Sequence record: OR544954
From: Escherichia phage vB_EcoM_EP32a
Direction: 5' to 3' (one strand)
Length of the DNA stretch: 64,000 bases
The notes beneath the pieces are model-generated. The model was not told where the DNA came from and ran no database searches. It worked only from the letters and a program-made list of their open reading frames with translations. The position numbers and the translations under genes are program-made. Shown piece by piece: positions 54,586-62,409 of this stretch; position 1 is the stretch's first letter; each line of letters begins with the position of its first letter.

Positions 54586-55221
54586 ATGAAAACTACTCCT
54601 ATTACTATCGCTATTGACGCAATCATAAAACAAGCTTCTTCTTTGGCCGCTATGGCCAAAGTAATTAGTCAAAACCCTGCTCGTTATAATGCTATTCTAG
54701 AAACTCTTCGACGCCCTGGACTTAGTAATTATGAAAGCCGGGTAATTATTACAGGTGTTGGTAAGAATGCTAATATCGCAACTAAAGCTTCCGAGACTTT
54801 TGCTTCACTAGGTATTCCTAGCATGTATTTGAACACCGGGCATTATTCTCATGGTGATGCAGGATTTATTGCGCCTAATGATGTGTTGATTCATATTAGT
54901 CGTTCTGGTAAAACTGAAGAAATGATAGGTGTTGCTAAACATCTTCGTATGATTCGTCCTCAGGTTAAACAGATTCTGTTACATTGTAACCCAGACATTC
55001 CACAAGAATACGAAGCTCTTTTTGATTATACGTTCTGTACCGGTATCGCGGTAGAAGTTGACGAGAACTCTTTGGCTCCGACTATGTCCACTACATTGTT
55101 GTTAGCGCTTATCGATACGTTTGCTATCAACCTTTCGTCTGAACGCGGATTTACCTCTAATGACTTCCTTAAGTTCCACCCTGGTGGTGCACTAGGTGCC
55201 ATGTTACGAGGCGAACAATGA
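54586..55221 (+). CDS. SIS-domain sugar-phosphate isomerase (KdsD/GmhA-like)
   Basis: ITGVGKNANIA ... HGDAGF ... SRSGKTEE motifs. Confidence 0.75.
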   Translation: MKTTPITIAIDAIIKQASSLAAMAKVISQNPARYNAILETLRRPGLSNYESRVIITGVGKNANIATKASETFASLGIPSMYLNTGHYSHGDAGFIAPNDVLIHISRSGKTEEMIGVAKHLRMIRPQVKQILLHCNPDIPQEYEALFDYTFCTGIAVEVDENSLAPTMSTTLLLALIDTFAINLSSERGFTSNDFLKFHPGGALGAMLRGEQ

Positions 55222-55361
55222 AAGCAATAACAATAGGACTTTTACTATTGATGCTTGTCATGACTATCTACTGGAGCTTAATGGCTCCAGTAATGATTCC
55301 AACACTTGTAATTGGATGGATTATGATTGGACTACAAGCAAAGTATGAATGCTTTATCTAG
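55218..55361 (+). CDS. small membrane protein (47 aa)
   Basis: Hydrophobic ORF MKAITIGLLLLMLVMTIYW...; below the ORF-track cutoff. Confidence 0.4.
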   Translation: MKAITIGLLLLMLVMTIYWSLMAPVMIPTLVIGWIMIGLQAKYECFI

Positions 55362-55402: not shown

Positions 55403-57088
55403 ATGAAAAAAGCTGTTATTCTTGGTGCTGGACTGGCAACTCGTTTGTATCCAATAACGCATCATATTCCTAAGGTGCTTGTTAACTATAAACAAGACAC
55501 TATTCTGAGCAATTTGTATACAATTTATTCTGACCTTGGCGCAGATGAAATTATTGTAGTAGTTCATTCAAAATTTGCTGAAACCGTTCGAGCTTATTGT
55601 GAGCAAGAAGGGTTCAATGTGACTATTCGTACAGTTGATGAAGCGTATGGTTCTGCTTATGCTCTTGCTAAATTATACAAAGATTTAGATGGCCATAACG
55701 TAATTGTTAACTGGTGTGATATTATTCCTGATTTTGGTTCATGGTCTTGGAATGTTAACGCAATCTATGTTAAGGGTGATGAATGTCGATATAATTTCGA
55801 CGGTGAAAATATCACTAACGTAGGTTCAACGGGTGGTAATGTTGTAGGAATTTACCAGTTCAAAGACTGGGAATTCTATATGGGTTCTACTGATGAGGAA
55901 ATTCATGAATACTGCAAAGGACGTGATTTCGTAGAATTCCTTTACGGGAGTGCATTCAATAAATCAGAGCTTATGAATCTAATTGATTTAGGTGATATGC
56001 CTAAACTTGAAAAAGCTCATGAAGTTCGTGAACTTAATCGTAGTTTTAATGCAGTTGAAATTGGTGAAGAAACTGTAACTAAATTCGCATTAACCGAACA
56101 GGGTCGAGCTCTTCAGAAAGATGAGATTTCATGGTATCTTAAAGTGAAATCAGATTCAGTTCCTCAGTTAGTTTCTGTTAATGAAAATAACTTTGAAATG
56201 GAACGCATTAAAGGTAAGCCGGCATTTGAATATATTAAATCCAAATCAAGTCTTGCTCGTCCACAAATTGTTGATGCAATTTTAGATGCACTGAAATTCA
56301 GCACAGACACTTATTTTGTAAGTCCTGAAACTGTTCGTCGTGATTTCACTAAAGAATTCTATACGAAAGTTATTGATCGTTGTGAAAGCATTCAGCCATT
56401 GATTGATTCATTTGGTAAAATCACACATGTGAACTACACTAAGATTGGACGTCTGAAGCCAATGCTGAAACAAGCTTTAGAACACCTTATTCGTTATCAT
56501 AACCGTTCTCAGGGACAGTACTCTGTTATTCACGGTGACCCGAACTTCAGTAATACTATGATTACTGATAATGGCGAAGTCAAGTTTATCGACCCTCGTG
56601 GATATTTTGGTGAAACCAAGATTTACGGGCCAAAATTGTATGACGAAGCTAAAGTGCTTTATGCTGTTTCAGGTTATGATGAATTCAATGCTAATCCAAC
56701 CTGGGGACAGTTTACTATTGATGAAACAACTTGTAATGTGACTATTAACATCAATCCATTAGTTTACAAATATGGAAAGATGAGTTCGTTTAACGAGTAT
56801 CATCATTTGGCAGTGGCAATTATCTGGATTGCATTAGGTGGTTATTTCAAGAATAATCCACTTAAAGCGGTAGCCGCATATTATAAAGGTATGGAACTTC
56901 TGACTAAGCAATTACGTAACATGGGCCGTGTACTTCAGGACGGCTCTATTAGTTATGACGTAGCAGAACCTGTAACGGCTACTCTGATTACAAAAAATCC
57001 TGGTAAATGGGTACTAACTGATAAAGAAACTGGTGTTTCCTATCGTCCAATCGGTGGCGATATCACTCATCAATGGGAACGAATCTAA
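55403..57088 (+). CDS. bifunctional sugar-1-phosphate nucleotidyltransferase / kinase
   Basis: N-terminal ILGAGLATRLYPIT (RmlA-like); C-terminal VIHGDPNFSN...FIDPRG (APH/choline-kinase-like). Confidence 0.75.
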   Translation: MKKAVILGAGLATRLYPITHHIPKVLVNYKQDTILSNLYTIYSDLGADEIIVVVHSKFAETVRAYCEQEGFNVTIRTVDEAYGSAYALAKLYKDLDGHNVIVNWCDIIPDFGSWSWNVNAIYVKGDECRYNFDGENITNVGSTGGNVVGIYQFKDWEFYMGSTDEEIHEYCKGRDFVEFLYGSAFNKSELMNLIDLGDMPKLEKAHEVRELNRSFNAVEIGEETVTKFALTEQGRALQKDEISWYLKVKSDSVPQLVSVNENNFEMERIKGKPAFEYIKSKSSLARPQIVDAILDALKFSTDTYFVSPETVRRDFTKEFYTKVIDRCESIQPLIDSFGKITHVNYTKIGRLKPMLKQALEHLIRYHNRSQGQYSVIHGDPNFSNTMITDNGEVKFIDPRGYFGETKIYGPKLYDEAKVLYAVSGYDEFNANPTWGQFTIDETTCNVTININPLVYKYGKMSSFNEYHHLAVAIIWIALGGYFKNNPLKAVAAYYKGMELLTKQLRNMGRVLQDGSISYDVAEPVTATLITKNPGKWVLTDKETGVSYRPIGGDITHQWERI

Positions 57089-57474
57089 TGCACCGTGTAG
57101 AAAACATGCTTAATCTTTGTTTTGATGTCGACGATTGTATAACAGAGTGGAATAACAATCGTGATTACGTGAACTTCAAGCCAGACGTCGAAATGGTGAC
57201 TGCCATTAATGCCCTGTATGATGCAGGGCATACCATAACGCTTTACACTGCTCGTGGTATGAAGTCAGTAGGTCCTGGACGTATAGCAATTGATATTCTC
57301 CCAAGTCTGATTCAGAACTTGGCAAACATTGGCTTGAAGTACCATAATTTGCTAACACATAAACCAGTATATGATTGGATTATCGACGACAAAGCTATGC
57401 GTCCTGACGAATTCAAAGCTCTTATGAATAAAGGCGAATTCGAAACATTTAAATCGTATAAACCGAATCTATAA
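57088..57474 (+). CDS. HAD-superfamily phosphatase
   Basis: DxDxT motif FDVDDCIT; start 57088 (TAATG overlap) or 57073. Confidence 0.6.
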   Translation: MHRVENMLNLCFDVDDCITEWNNNRDYVNFKPDVEMVTAINALYDAGHTITLYTARGMKSVGPGRIAIDILPSLIQNLANIGLKYHNLLTHKPVYDWIIDDKAMRPDEFKALMNKGEFETFKSYKPNL

Positions 57475-57519: not shown

Positions 57520-58695
57520 GTGAGATGCAAAAAAATGAATACTTTTAAAATCGGAACGAATTTTGATTTAGCTCTTCTTGATAAAATCGTAGAGCTCAAT
57601 AAAACTTATCCTAATAGCTTGATAAACGAAGTATACGGCTCTACAAGAGAAATGGCTTTTGTAGCAGCCAGACCTGATTTTAGGCTTCCTGACGTTGACA
57701 AAAAGATGTTAGAAGATTACGTTAAACGTTGTAACGAATTAGGTATTTGCTTTAACTATACACTCAACACGATAAATCCTGGTTCAAAAAGAGAACTAGT
57801 TGAGTGGAAGAAGAAAGCTATTCAGGATTATGTTCAGTATCTTTGGTCAATAGGCGTATGGCGTATTACTATCGCTAACCCTGTTGTTATGGAAATTGTT
57901 CGTGAAGTCAATAAAGACATTGAGATTGAAGTTTCAACAATTCTACATGTCGATGCTGTAACTCAAATAAAATACTTACATGACCAATACAATATCAAAA
58001 AGGTCTGCTGTGGAATTCATAAGAACCGTTCAGTTTCTTTCCTGAAGCGTGCAGCAGAGTTTTGCAATAAGAACAATATAATATTTGAAGTTCTTGTAAA
58101 TGAGTTCTGTTCTAATGCTGGTAAAGGGTATACAACACATTGTAGCTATCGTGACTCTTGCTATATTTTCCATAGTACTGATGTTACAGCTGATGATGCT
58201 AAATCCTTAAACGGGTATCCTATGCAGCACTGTATTAAAGCTCGTGATACAGACCCATTTAACTGGTTGAGAACTCGTTTTGTTCGTCCTCAAGATTTGA
58301 AACTTTATAATGATATTGGTATCACTCAATTCAAAGTTTCAGGACGTACAGGTAGCACAGACTACATTTTGAAAGTTCTTGAAGCATACGCTTCTGAAAA
58401 GTTTGAAGGTAATTTGTTAGAACTGTGGAAGCCTTTAGAGACTATTTTCACTCTTGAAAACGAAACTGAGTTTTCACATACAGTAAATATTGAAACCTCT
58501 TTGTTAGATGGCTTTTTAGAAAAAAGGTGGTTCAGACATCCAGATTTCGATTGTGCTAATGAAATCTGCGGGACGACGTGTACATATTGTGAAAGATATT
58601 ATAAACGTCAATTATCTAAAAACGGGTTAGCAGAAAACTCTATATCTATTATTGATATAACTAACTCTGATGACGCTTTGAGGTACCCGGAATGA
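57520..58695 (+). CDS. Cys-rich 391-aa protein, candidate modification or transferase enzyme
   Basis: Cys clusters EFCSNAGKGYTTHCSY and DCANEICGTTCTYCERYY; family not assigned. Confidence 0.6.
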   Translation: MRCKKMNTFKIGTNFDLALLDKIVELNKTYPNSLINEVYGSTREMAFVAARPDFRLPDVDKKMLEDYVKRCNELGICFNYTLNTINPGSKRELVEWKKKAIQDYVQYLWSIGVWRITIANPVVMEIVREVNKDIEIEVSTILHVDAVTQIKYLHDQYNIKKVCCGIHKNRSVSFLKRAAEFCNKNNIIFEVLVNEFCSNAGKGYTTHCSYRDSCYIFHSTDVTADDAKSLNGYPMQHCIKARDTDPFNWLRTRFVRPQDLKLYNDIGITQFKVSGRTGSTDYILKVLEAYASEKFEGNLLELWKPLETIFTLENETEFSHTVNIETSLLDGFLEKRWFRHPDFDCANEICGTTCTYCERYYKRQLSKNGLAENSISIIDITNSDDALRYPE

Positions 58696-58931
58696 TTTCT
58701 AGAAAAACTTTTAATCACCGACTTAATGAAGAGATTTTGACTACGAAACTGAACACTAACGAACAAATTCTTAAAAAGGCCCTGATGGGCCTGTTTGAAA
58801 TTAAAGCGGCTAAAGTGATTAAAGAACCTGTTCAATTGGAATACTACGCTGATGCATTTCTTCATAGTGTTCTTGGAAGTATCGATGCTGAAGCTTTACG
58901 TTATATCAACATTGTCAAGAAATTCAAATAA
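58692..58931 (+). CDS. hypothetical protein
   Basis: 79 aa. Confidence 0.5.
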   Translation: MISRKTFNHRLNEEILTTKLNTNEQILKKALMGLFEIKAAKVIKEPVQLEYYADAFLHSVLGSIDAEALRYINIVKKFK

Positions 58932-58972: not shown

Positions 58973-59689
58973 ATGGGAAAACATAACACAATGAAATATA
59001 TCAAAGCCGCAGATTTTCAAACCGCATTTAAAGCAGTCAATCGTGAAATTTTAGAAAACCCGGAATTCGTAACTGATTCTCGTATTGGACGTTGTAATGA
59101 AATTGGGTCTATGACAGTAGTTGTTGACACTCCATCATCATTCAAAATGACAGACCCACGTATTAACCGCATCTCTTATGAATATGCCGAAGACTTCTGG
59201 AAGTTTATGATTTCTGGTGGTACCAACGCAGAAGAAGCGTTTAAGGCATATCCTAATGTCGCTAAATTTATTTCTAAACCAAAATCAGATGTTTTGCCGG
59301 CGAACTTCAACACTTTCTATGGTCCTCGCATTGCGGCCCAGCTACCGGCTCTTCTAAAAGAACTTAAAGAGAAGCCTAACTCTCGAAGAGTTGTGTTCCA
59401 AATTCTAGAAAGTTCTGATCAGGCTTTGCTTGATTCGGACGAAACGCTTGAATATCCATGTACTGACTCAGTGACTTATTATATTCGTGATGGTAAGCTT
59501 TATACCCACTGTCATATGCGTTCCCAGAACTGTGCTGTTGTTATGCAGTTGGATTTTTATCTCCAAGGAAAATTACTTCATTATATCGCTAACGAATGTG
59601 GTGTAGAAGTTGGTGATTATACTCATACCATGGTAAGTGCCCATGTGTTTGAACGTGATTTTGATTATGTTAAAGGATTCCTTGACTAA
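58973..59689 (+). CDS. 42: thymidylate-synthase-fold pyrimidine hydroxymethylase (gp42-like, divergent)
   Basis: EYPCTDSVTYYIRD...HMRSQN resembles the T4 gp42 active-site region FMCTNTVQYLIRD...NMRSND. Confidence 0.6.
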   Translation: MGKHNTMKYIKAADFQTAFKAVNREILENPEFVTDSRIGRCNEIGSMTVVVDTPSSFKMTDPRINRISYEYAEDFWKFMISGGTNAEEAFKAYPNVAKFISKPKSDVLPANFNTFYGPRIAAQLPALLKELKEKPNSRRVVFQILESSDQALLDSDETLEYPCTDSVTYYIRDGKLYTHCHMRSQNCAVVMQLDFYLQGKLLHYIANECGVEVGDYTHTMVSAHVFERDFDYVKGFLD

Positions 59690-60588
59690 TGGCTATTTTC
59701 CGCGTACCTATCTTGAGTATGCGGTCTTATGAAACTGGACAGTATGCTATCCTTAAGGATGGCAACTTCCAACTTCATTTGCACCGTGCTAATCCAGGTG
59801 ATGTGATTACATATCCACGTAATGCATCTGATATTAAAGAATGCGAACGTCTTTTTCCGGAATTTAAGTTTGTTCCATTATGGTATAAAGATAACGCGTA
59901 TAACACTCGTAAATATTTCTGGTCTGAAAATGAATTTGTGGTTGATTCATTAATTGCTTATTATGATTGTGATTTTCTAATCACAGATATCACCGGATAT
60001 GATGGCGCTTTTGACGTAGAATTCAATTTCAATATCACTGCAGACCCTAATAAACCACGTTTTTATATTGATGAATTCTTAAAAACCGACATGTTGTCTG
60101 TTAATCGTTCACTTCAAACTACTGTGTTGAATGAACGTCAAAAAGAAGTGCTGGTTAACGCAGGTGCAGATGGTAATAAGATTATCGTAACACAGAAAGT
60201 TATACGTCCTTCCGTCATGCAGCGTCTTGTAGGTGATTTGGCTCCTATTCATCTAGATGGTATTTTTCATCCATTTCGAATTAGTGACCCATGCTATCGT
60301 TTTGAACAAGTGGTTGAATGCGCAATTCAATTAGGTCAACCGCTTTATATAACTGATCCAAATAATAGTTTCGACAGAAATAAGTATCCTGAAGAAGCGC
60401 TGATTCGAATTTTTAATCCAACTAAAACTGAGTACTATCAAATTCTTAAAGGACGTCCGAAGATTCAATATTTCGAAAATCCTGAAGAAGTATTCCATCC
60501 AGGTCTTGGTGAGTTCATCTACTTTAATGCTTTAATTTCTTCACCGTATAATATACCTAAATACGAAGATGTCGTAATCGAGGAATAA
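59689..60588 (+). CDS. hypothetical 299-aa protein (at the T4 beta-gt position)
   Basis: No family recognised by eye. Confidence 0.55.
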   Translation: MAIFRVPILSMRSYETGQYAILKDGNFQLHLHRANPGDVITYPRNASDIKECERLFPEFKFVPLWYKDNAYNTRKYFWSENEFVVDSLIAYYDCDFLITDITGYDGAFDVEFNFNITADPNKPRFYIDEFLKTDMLSVNRSLQTTVLNERQKEVLVNAGADGNKIIVTQKVIRPSVMQRLVGDLAPIHLDGIFHPFRISDPCYRFEQVVECAIQLGQPLYITDPNNSFDRNKYPEEALIRIFNPTKTEYYQILKGRPKIQYFENPEEVFHPGLGEFIYFNALISSPYNIPKYEDVVIEE

Positions 60589-60589
60589 A

Positions 60590-61138
60590 ATGGCTAAAAT
60601 TATTTTAGTAGACGGGCCTGATAATGCTGGTAAAACAACTTTCATTAATGACATAATGGAAATTAGTGAAAGATATGTAAAGATTGATTTCCCTAAACGA
60701 ACAGTTGATGGGCGTTTCGATGTTAAGTCTCGAAATGAAGTTGGCTGTTTCGAAACGATGTTGAATTATTTAGACCCTACTAAGATTTATCTATTAGACC
60801 GTGGATATATTAGTAACTGGGTTTATGGACGTATTCGACAAGATGCGGACTCGGTTCTTGACGTTTATGAACAGGATTATGTTCGTCTTTGCCAAAACCA
60901 TGATGTGTTCACAATTATTTTAACCCGTAACGAAATGACTGAAAGTTTTGAAGACGACCTTATTACTTTGTCTTCATTCGGTTTTAATACAGTCATTTCA
61001 CATTTTGAAGAGTTTGCAATTCATAACAAAATCCAAACGTATCAATTACTTAATCATGATGGTTCTAACAAAGTTATAGGATTTAATGCAAGTGAACGTA
61101 ATAATTTGATTACAGAAATCATTAAATGGGCTCGTTAA
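60590..61138 (+). CDS. P-loop nucleoside/nucleotide kinase-like protein
   Basis: Walker A VDGPDNAGKTT; 182 aa. Confidence 0.6.
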   Translation: MAKIILVDGPDNAGKTTFINDIMEISERYVKIDFPKRTVDGRFDVKSRNEVGCFETMLNYLDPTKIYLLDRGYISNWVYGRIRQDADSVLDVYEQDYVRLCQNHDVFTIILTRNEMTESFEDDLITLSSFGFNTVISHFEEFAIHNKIQTYQLLNHDGSNKVIGFNASERNNLITEIIKWAR

Positions 61139-61236: not shown

Positions 61237-62409
61237 ATGTCTGATTTAAAATCTCGTCTGATTAAAGCTTCTACTTCTAAAATGACTGCAGACTTGACTA
61301 AGTCTAAGCTGTTTAATAATCGTGATGAAGTCCCTACTCGTATTCCGATGTTGAATATTGCATTAGGTGGTGCTCTGAATGCAGGATTGCAATCAGGCTT
61401 GACTATTTTTGCTGCTCCTTCTAAACACTTTAAAACGTTGTTTGGACTAACTATGGTTGCAGCATATATGAAGAAATATAAAGATGCAATTTGTTTGTTC
61501 TATGATTCAGAATTTGGTGCTTCAGAATCTTATTTTCGTTCAATGGGTGTTGATTTAGACCGTGTAGTTCATACACCAATTCAGTCAGTAGAACAACTTA
61601 AAGTTGATATGACTAATCAGCTTGACGCGATTGAACGCGGTGATAAAGTTATTATCTTTATCGATTCAATCGGTAATACTGCATCTAAGAAAGAAACTGA
61701 AGATGCATTGAACGAGAAAGTTGTAGGTGATATGTCTCGTGCTAAGGCACTTAAATCTCTTTTCCGTATTGTGACCCCGTATCTGACTATTAAAGATATT
61801 CCGTGTGTTGCAATTAACCATACCGCAATGGAAATTGGCGGATTGTATCCTAAAGAGATTATGGGCGGTGGTACAGGTATTCTTTATTCTGCTAACACTG
61901 TATTCTTTATCTCTAAACGTCAGGTTAAAGAAGGTACAGAATTGACCGGTTATGACTTCACGTTGAAAGCAGAAAAATCTCGTACAGTTAAAGAGAAATC
62001 TACTTTCCCGATCACGGTTAATTTCGATGGTGGTATCGACCCATTCAGTGGCTTGCTAGAAATGGCAACTGAAATCGGTTTTGTGGTTAAGCCTAAAGCC
62101 GGGTGGTATGCTCGTGAATTCCTTGACGAAGAAACAGGTGAAATGATTCGTGAAGAGAAATCGTGGCGTGCTAAAGCTACTGATTGTGTAGAATTCTGGG
62201 GACCGTTGTTTAAACACAAGCCTTTCCGTGACGCAATTGAAACTAAATATAAACTAGGTGCTATCTCTTCTATTAAAGAAGTTGATGACGCTGTTAACGA
62301 CCTTATTAATTGCAAAGCAACAACTAAAGTTCCGGTTAAAACTTCTGATGCTCCGTCTGCAGCAGATATAGAAAACGACCTTGACGAAATGGAAGATTTC
62401 GATGAATAA
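61237..62409 (+). CDS. uvsX: recombinase UvsX (RecA-like)
   Basis: 390 aa; P-loop-containing, T4 order before 40 and 41. Confidence 0.9.
   Translation: MSDLKSRLIKASTSKMTADLTKSKLFNNRDEVPTRIPMLNIALGGALNAGLQSGLTIFAAPSKHFKTLFGLTMVAAYMKKYKDAICLFYDSEFGASESYFRSMGVDLDRVVHTPIQSVEQLKVDMTNQLDAIERGDKVIIFIDSIGNTASKKETEDALNEKVVGDMSRAKALKSLFRIVTPYLTIKDIPCVAINHTAMEIGGLYPKEIMGGGTGILYSANTVFFISKRQVKEGTELTGYDFTLKAEKSRTVKEKSTFPITVNFDGGIDPFSGLLEMATEIGFVVKPKAGWYAREFLDEETGEMIREEKSWRAKATDCVEFWGPLFKHKPFRDAIETKYKLGAISSIKEVDDAVNDLINCKATTKVPVKTSDAPSAADIENDLDEMEDFDE

Follow-up and report, generated by a model that had tools for sequence, protein, structure and literature searches.

A candidate base-proximal arabinosyltransferase of cytosine hypermodification at the beta-gt position of Escherichia phage vB_EcoM_EP32a

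In T4 the genes run in the order 43, imm, 42, beta-gt, segA, uvsX, and the question raised by the present locus is which enzyme occupies the beta-gt position when no beta-gt sequence can be recognised there. The window, by which we mean the whole stretch of 64,000 nucleotides analysed here, comes from Escherichia phage vB_EcoM_EP32a (sequence record OR544954), and at that position it carries an open reading frame (ORF) of 299 codons that begins with ATG and spans 59689..60588 on the forward strand. An earlier note on this DNA had placed the gene between a '42-like' gene and a P-loop kinase, as the T4 order and the coordinates in the window both bear out, and had proposed a sugar transferase acting on DNA that contains hydroxymethylcytosine (hmC). 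Our analysis indicates that a sugar transferase is very probably right and that the base is not: we think it quite probable that, in the cytosine hypermodification pathway of Mosigvirus phages, this ORF supplies the arabinosyltransferase that attaches the first, base-proximal sugar, with 5-hydroxycytosine (5hoC) instead of hmC as the base. The gene and its two immediate neighbours are the following (aa, amino acids; dCMP and dTMP, deoxycytidine and deoxythymidine monophosphate; TMK, thymidylate kinase).

58973..59689, forward strand: thymidylate-synthase homolog, 5-hydroxy-dCMP synthase, that is, a flavin- and O2-dependent dCMP 5-hydroxylase by its Pfam Thymidylat_synt match and RSQN...D signature
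59689..60588, forward strand: 299-aa GT-B glycosyltransferase-like protein, candidate first-arabinose transferase, from the ORF, PHROG 3891 and the predicted fold
60590..61138, forward strand: TMK-like P-loop nucleotide kinase (RB69 gp45), 182 aa, with a match to PHROG 761 'thymidylate kinase' (E=1.7e-45) and a weak dTMP-kinase NCBIfam match

The three genes are tightly packed: the start ATG of the 299-aa ORF overlaps the TAA of the upstream gene by one base, a single base separates its own TAA from the ATG of the kinase gene, and uvsX begins at 61237, past the kinase. The ORF is a genuine gene rather than a chance reading frame, since it matches PHROG 3891 over residues 1-298 (E=1.1e-155), has homologs in 348 phage records at 24-100% identity and 230 related cluster representatives in a profile search of a 1.84-billion-protein library, and yields a confident AlphaFold2 model. 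The surrounding 8 kb are 97-98% identical to many Mosigvirus (RB69-like) coliphages, and the protein is 100% identical to its counterpart in several of them. The homologs come from Mosig-, Dhaka-, Karam-, Teguna- and Kanagawavirus phages as well as Acinetobacter phages and Thanatos; of the 60 homolog matches listed, none is a T4, T2 or T6 record.

The same protein is known as RB69 ORF047c plus ORF046c (gp46:47), as gp79 of Acinetobacter phage DLP3 and as TH1_063 of Shewanella phage Thanatos, the last an ortholog with 47.5% identity at the same gene position; nothing substantive differs between these and the protein in the window, where the frame is intact. The RB69 reference splits the gene into ORF047c (the N-terminal 183 aa) and ORF046c (the C-terminal 116 aa), of which the window protein is the uninterrupted concatenation, near-identical residue by residue to both halves (BFVD matches to both, 98% identity). 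In the RB69 record NC_004928 (22500-31500, our locus L008) single-base sequencing errors split 046c/047c and also 052c/053c, and in the window both genes are intact, with 299 aa and 561 aa. GenBank labels the counterpart of the ORF 'hypothetical protein', and this holds even for Bas47, a BASEL phage with careful annotation. Papers of 2025-2026 already describe the gene and its neighbours, as well as the fold and a role proposed for its product, and structural work on the cluster has been done in phage HY126. From structure prediction only, Lee et al. (NAR 2026, PMC13326640) named RB69 gp46:47 putative '(alpha-)arabinosyltransferase 1'. What we add is modest: synteny over 55 loci, a check of the hydroxylase signature, natural fusion proteins, a degenerate homolog in Serratia phage PS2, and loci that have a U32-family gene and no ThyA-like hydroxylase near the transferase.

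Which base would such an enzyme modify? The motif of the protein encoded at 58973..59689 is MRSQNCAVVMQLD, where the T4 gp42 counterpart has MRSNDVVFGFRND; the former carries the RSQN...D hydroxylase signature and the latter, with RSND, does not. In the numbering of E. coli ThyA, D169N marks 5-hydroxy-dCMP synthases and N177D corresponds to dCMP specificity, and RB69 gp48 was shown to make 5-hydroxy-dCMP with O2 and flavin (Lee et al., PMC13326640). The window protein is virtually identical over its full length to PDB entries 9iqc, 9ir2 and 9iqu (E=8e-161). Because these belong to the same 9iq/9ir accession series as 9iqz and 9ir0, which are entered as 'phage HY126 glycosyltransferase', all three very probably represent the HY126 hydroxylase, whose structures Lee et al. 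attribute to He et al. Judged by its sequence, the neighbour makes the acceptor hydroxyl and is not the gene-42-type hydroxymethylase that the earlier note took it for, even if most GenBank records name it dCMP hydroxymethylase or thymidylate synthase. Direct measurements on RB69 DNA likewise replace hmC by 5hoC as the base: mass spectrometry (MS) gave a base fragment of m/z 128.05 (5hoC) and not 142.06 (hmC), and nuclear magnetic resonance (NMR) showed beta-D-Araf-(1-3)-alpha-D-Araf (Araf, arabinofuranose) on O5 of 5-hydroxy-2'-deoxycytidine (Lee et al., PMC13326640).

The ORF protein itself is predicted to have a GT-B fold. Computed from an alignment of 61 sequences, the AlphaFold2 model has a mean predicted local distance difference test score (pLDDT) of 95.3 and a predicted template-modelling score (pTM) of 0.90, and consists of two Rossmann-like beta/alpha/beta domains with a cleft between them; the earlier note had suggested fold prediction as a check, GT-A or GT-B, and the model favours GT-B, not GT-A. 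Foldseek against the PDB places it in the same superfamily, with UDP-GlcNAc 2-epimerases (UDP, uridine diphosphate) and MshA at the top, and against BFVD it returns the protein's own family members first and then viral glycosyltransferases. Residues invariant among homologs at 36-75% identity cluster just after predicted strands in both Rossmann-like halves. In the donor-side domain R197, K246 and H270-P-G272 show no variation, an acidic residue (E or D) always fills position 275, and the conserved family pattern reads [E/D]263...H270-P-G272..[E/D]275. If the model is right, this clustering is as expected of a live active site in a functional nucleotide-sugar enzyme, where the basic R197, K246 and H270 may bind the diphosphate of the donor and the acidic residue 275 its ribose.

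The protein is an unusually compact GT-B. Compared with retaining GT4-type GT-B enzymes (6kih sucrose-phosphate synthase, 6n1x BshA, 3c4q MshA, 2gej PimA and 8b5s WaaG), it shows 8-12% identity and is about 60-100 residues shorter. At E<=0.1 Pfam returned no match to the 299-aa protein, and NCBIfam returned none either; over the 61 family members, Pfam at E<=10 gave no glycosyltransferase family, Glycos_transf_1 (PF00534) and Glyco_transf_4 included, and the family profile matched nothing among all PDB sequences. The EX7E motif of GT4 enzymes is not conserved in the family as a whole, only positions 275 and 263 (E/D) being kept. Because the first glutamate of EX7E is variable and GT4 profiles match no family member, we call the fold GT4-like without assigning the protein to GT4.

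The likeness to T4 beta-gt is one of place rather than of sequence. The earlier note had seen no resemblance between the two, and at the sequence level we agree: hhalign with the 61-sequence family profile gives T4 beta-gt a probability of 0.1%. There is no preferential structural similarity either, T4 beta-gt lying outside the best 60 structural matches. The T4 enzymes beta-gt (GT63) and alpha-gt (GT72) have 351 and 400 aa, and transfer glucose to a hydroxymethyl group, whereas here the acceptor would be 5-hydroxycytosine, giving an aryl-type ether, and the sugar putatively arabinofuranose. T4 beta-gt is basic, with an isoelectric point (pI) of 9.05, while the window protein is acidic (pI 5.05), as is its family (median pI 5.15, with 95% of members below 7).

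How firmly is the gene tied to the base hydroxylase? We fetched 58 viral loci, added 4 from metagenomes and Thanatos, and identified their ORFs with iterative profile searches that started from the proteins of the window; counts refer to the 55 loci whose flanks reach at least 1.2 kb on either side, in which transferase identity ranges from 24 to 98%. A ThyA homolog lies directly upstream of the transferase in 46 of the 55 and within 6 kb in 51, and the RSxN...D signature is present in 55 of 57 aligned ThyA homologs from the loci and the window. The TMK-like kinase directly follows the transferase in 37 loci and is present somewhere in the flank of 53; of the two loci lacking it, one (L057) has a transferase form of 552 aa, long enough for a fusion. 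Sugar genes are less regular, with the SIS isomerase in 22 loci, the kinase/pyrophosphorylase in 35 and the HAD phosphatase in 31, and many metagenomic loci (L004, L037-L050, L063-L067) have the hydroxylase-transferase-kinase triad alone, lacking arabinose-synthesis genes. Since those genes are frequent and not universal, it is the triad that forms the conserved core, and the sugar probably differs from locus to locus. The kinase at 60590..61138, whose translation is coupled to that of the transferase, completes this conserved module of three, and it is a second nucleotide kinase beside the gp1-type deoxynucleoside monophosphate (dNMP) kinase encoded elsewhere in these phages. On two distant metagenomic phage contigs we also observed a Flavodoxin_2 gene, of the NAD(P)H-dependent flavin reductase type, upstream of the triad (L004:6739-7293, directly adjacent, and L003:1-523), which fits a hydroxylase needing reduced flavin.

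Natural fusion proteins connect the same activities. In the large protein library, seven metagenomic cluster representatives (P0225, P0228, P0232, P0236, P0237, P0253 and P0260) appear to join a TMK-like kinase to the transferase, with the kinase domain at the C-terminus of six and at the N-terminus of the other. BLASTP places the seven extensions in one group, and they share Walker-type GxDxxGK and (D/T)R..S..VY motifs with the window kinase family, which hhalign relates to them with E=6e-5 and a probability of 65%; Pfam Thymidylate_kin matches only P0228 (E=1.2e-4) and P0253 (E=0.0098), and phmmer and BLASTP with the window kinase and HAD phosphatase found nothing significant in the extra fusion domains. 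By these sequence measures, a below-threshold Thymidylate_kin match among them, the C-terminal extensions are likely, not certain, to be kinases. Eight further representatives (P0139, P0149, P0150, P0153, P0169, P0170, P0197 and P0222) have a HAD-phosphatase-like domain (DxDG...GDD, about 185 aa) N-terminal to the transferase. So far as these domain assignments hold, the fusions tie the transferase to both the modified-nucleotide and the sugar-donor branches, which is where a transferase should stand.

Upstream of the triad, the window holds the genes of the sugar-donor branch and a U32-family gene.

54586..55221, forward strand: SIS-domain arabinose-5-phosphate isomerase (RB69 gp55), first sugar-donor step (Pfam SIS; PHROG 5670 'arabinose 5-phosphate isomerase', E=1.6e-116)
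55403..57088, forward strand: bifunctional 561-aa enzyme, RB69 gp52:53 / HY126 AfhE (Pfam NTP_transferase, E=1.3e-9, and weak APH-type matches)
57073..57474, forward strand: HAD-type phosphatase, RB69 gp51 / HY126 AfhF (PHROG 1238)
57520..58695, forward strand: U32 'peptidase'-family protein, 391 aa, RB69 gp50 (Pfam Peptidase_U32, E=7.5e-11; PHROG 5757; weak UbiU match)

The role of the gp55-type isomerase was proposed by Lee et al. (PMC13326640). In the 561-aa enzyme an N-terminal NTP_transferase domain (UDP-arabinose pyrophosphorylase) precedes a C-terminal APH-like sugar kinase domain; in the same paper HY126 AfhE is reported as a UDP-arabinose pyrophosphorylase, and the AfhF-type phosphatase as converting Araf-1,5-bisphosphate to Araf-1-phosphate (PMC13326640).

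These parts suggest the following scheme. dCMP would be converted to 5-hydroxy-dCMP by the product of 58973..59689 and then phosphorylated and polymerised, and in a parallel branch the products of 54586..55221, 55403..57088 and 57073..57474 would turn ribulose-5-phosphate into UDP-D-Araf. The 299-aa GT-B enzyme would then move Araf from UDP-Araf to the 5-hydroxyl, giving the alpha-D-Araf-O5-cytosine of virion DNA; we take DNA as the default acceptor, following the T4 paradigm. A second, unrelated GT-B of the RB69 gp3 type, encoded outside the window, would add the beta-(1-3) arabinose. The gp3 type, which also takes in the HY126 glycosyltransferase (9iqz, 9ir0) and the BASEL 'Aat', is the second (beta-1,3) arabinosyltransferase, and DNA that already bears one arabinose is its proposed substrate; the gp3-type protein is unrelated in sequence to the 299-aa protein (BLASTP E=2.1; hhalign probability 0.3%). 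It has 366 aa, an ORF of that size is absent from the window, and the RB69 gp3 gene lies about 20 kb past the window end, between rIIA and gene 39. What would make the 299-aa protein the first transferase rather than some other? Thanatos DNA is mono-arabinosylated, and that phage has a single arabinosyltransferase gene, syntenic with RB69 gp46:47 (Lee et al., PMC13326640); in the Thanatos record the gene at this position is TH1_063. The sugar next to the base has an alpha linkage, and the assignment of gp46:47 as arabinosyltransferase 1 was reached independently by Lee et al. (PMC13326640).

Several observations weigh against this assignment. The accessible literature contains no biochemical or genetic proof of a first-sugar transferase. 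Individually cloned predicted glycosyltransferases of DLP3, the gp79 ortholog included, gave no arabinosylation when supplied with 5hoC DNA and UDP-Araf or UDP-arabinopyranose (UDP-Arap) (PMC13326640). TH1_063 made UDP-xylose from uridine triphosphate (UTP) and xylose-1-phosphate and showed no transfer, only unhydroxylated cytosine substrates having been offered (Brandt et al., PMC12838424). Foldseek places UDP-GlcNAc 2-epimerases, which are also GT-B proteins, level with transferases, and neither Pfam and NCBIfam nor the PDB profile search yields a sequence link to any curated glycosyltransferase family. The window protein does contain an EX7E motif (E267-VFHPGLG-E275), and most homologs have K or T in place of its first glutamate, E267. 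A retaining mechanism, which the fold neighbours would suggest by analogy, is a weak inference, because RB69 gp3 is GT4-like too and yet Lee et al. give it a beta linkage.

The same enzyme might instead act on the free mononucleotide, a reading that the inactivity of the individual DLP3 glycosyltransferases on 5hoC DNA would fit. In that case 5-hydroxy-dCMP would be arabinosylated before polymerisation, the TMK-like kinase would phosphorylate the product, the polymerase would use a pre-glycosylated dCTP (deoxycytidine triphosphate) analogue, and only the second sugar would be added on DNA. The conservation of the triad even in loci without arabinose-synthesis genes speaks for this, as do the overlapping or abutting hydroxylase, transferase and kinase genes, the transferase-kinase fusions in both orders, and the acidity of the family compared with T4 beta-gt. 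The gp1-type dNMP kinase already phosphorylates 5-hydroxy-dCMP (PMC13326640), and a second kinase therefore suggests a different substrate; Lee et al. themselves state that their data do not separate mononucleotide from DNA (PMC13326640). On the other hand, the hydroxylase and the gp1-type kinase alone put 5hoC into plasmid DNA (PMC13326640), so that unglycosylated 5-hydroxy-dCTP must be made and be polymerisable. The HAD-transferase fusions join steps that are not consecutive, and a kinase fusion is therefore not diagnostic, while the triad could equally be a self-sufficient mobile cassette. Nor is pI more than a crude proxy, RB69 gp3 being mildly acidic (pI 6.33) with DLP3 counterparts that act on DNA. 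All phage DNA glycosylations characterised so far are, to our knowledge, post-replicative, which also counts against a nucleotide acceptor. On balance we regard this variant as rather unlikely; if true, it would explain the failed in-vitro arabinosylation of 5hoC DNA and would be, as far as we know, the first pre-replicative glycosylation of a DNA precursor.

The other readings change the reaction or the base, and we hold all of them to be much less probable. The UDP-xylose detected by liquid chromatography and tandem mass spectrometry (LC-MS/MS) with purified TH1_063, UTP and xylose-1-phosphate (PMC12838424) would, given the orthology, make the protein a UDP-pentose pyrophosphorylase that prepares the activated sugar. 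This we find very unlikely: the predicted fold is GT-B rather than that of a GT-A-like nucleotidyltransferase, none of the 61 family members gives an NTP_transferase signal, and the cluster already contains an NTP_transferase enzyme, the AfhE counterpart. Moreover xylose served as a surrogate sugar in that assay, and the sole control was one that lacked the enzyme, so that a co-purifying host enzyme may have been responsible, and Thanatos would be left with no transferase candidate at all. A UDP-sugar 2-epimerase-like or other sugar-nucleotide-remodelling enzyme, as the top Foldseek neighbours might suggest, is more improbable still. The Epimerase_2 Pfam signal is absent from the 299-aa protein and the 61 family members, and membership of the UDP-GlcNAc 2-epimerase family, judged by profile match together with closest structural neighbours, was not found; the proposed route from ribulose-5-phosphate to UDP-Araf needs no epimerase (PMC13326640); and the transferase gene tracks the base hydroxylase rather than the sugar genes, many triad loci having no genes for sugar synthesis. 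Finally, the proposal of the earlier note, a beta-gt analogue acting on hmC in DNA, has in its favour the T4 position, the GT-B fold, an older report of arabinosyl-hmC in RB69 DNA (PMC6024577) and the degenerate homolog beside an hmC-type gene 42 in Serratia phage PS2. We can give it hardly any credence, in view of the 5-hydroxylase signature of the adjacent ThyA homolog, the RB69 fragment mass, the NMR linkage of Araf directly to the C5 oxygen, and the lack of any sequence or preferential structural likeness to beta-gt; the arabinosyl-hmC assignment has itself been explicitly corrected (PMC13390438). A first arabinosyltransferase acting on 5hoC is the reading we prefer.

Serratia phage PS2 deserves a description of its own. 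Directly after its gene 42, FF83_gp042 (L068:4001-4927) encodes a 308-aa, full-length, degenerate homolog of the family (hhalign probability 99.2%, E=1.3e-19, 19% identity), in which most family-invariant residues are replaced (SMRS, KDGN, FPFRISD, TDPN, HPG). PS2 gene 42 is of the hmC type (MRSND), and the phage also has bona fide beta-gt and beta-alpha-gt genes. We considered a direct evolutionary link from the family to beta-gt via PS2; the presence of a separate bona fide beta-gt along with the degenerate homolog led us to reject it. FF83_gp042 may be a remnant, or a paralog that has taken on another use.

The U32 gene, present in 21 of the 55 loci, is of interest in another respect. Lee et al. 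label RB69 gp50 just 'sugar or heterocycle reductase' (PMC13326640). In four distant loci (L056, L058, L060 and L062) the gene order is kinase-transferase-U32, with SIS and kinase/pyrophosphorylase genes standing between transferase and U32 gene in L060, and a ThyA-like hydroxylase is absent within 6 kb. The U32 family includes O2-independent hydroxylases of pyrimidine C5 and of quinones (RlhA, TrhP, UbiU/V), and the U32 protein might be an alternative, perhaps anaerobic, cytosine-5 hydroxylase. Two small forward-strand ORFs of the cluster may be mentioned as well: one of 79 aa at 58692..58931 (PHROG 8601, E=2.8e-49), found in the same place in L010, L016, L023 and L024, and a hydrophobic one of 47 aa at 55218..55361, annotated in Bas47.

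More generally, arabinosylated 5-hydroxycytosine shields a large group of T4-like phages, among them coliphages and phages of Klebsiella, Enterobacter, Yersinia and Acinetobacter considered for therapy, from restriction enzymes and some CRISPR systems, and the same modification makes these phages targets of other defences. Annotation lags behind: hundreds of GenBank records carry the gene as 'hypothetical protein', and the label 'dCMP hydroxymethylase' or 'thymidylate synthase' on its neighbour implies the wrong chemistry. The enzyme that adds the first sugar takes the committing glycosylation step, and knowing both this enzyme and its acceptor would allow the pathway to be reconstituted, phage DNA modification to be engineered and glycosylated DNA to be synthesised enzymatically.

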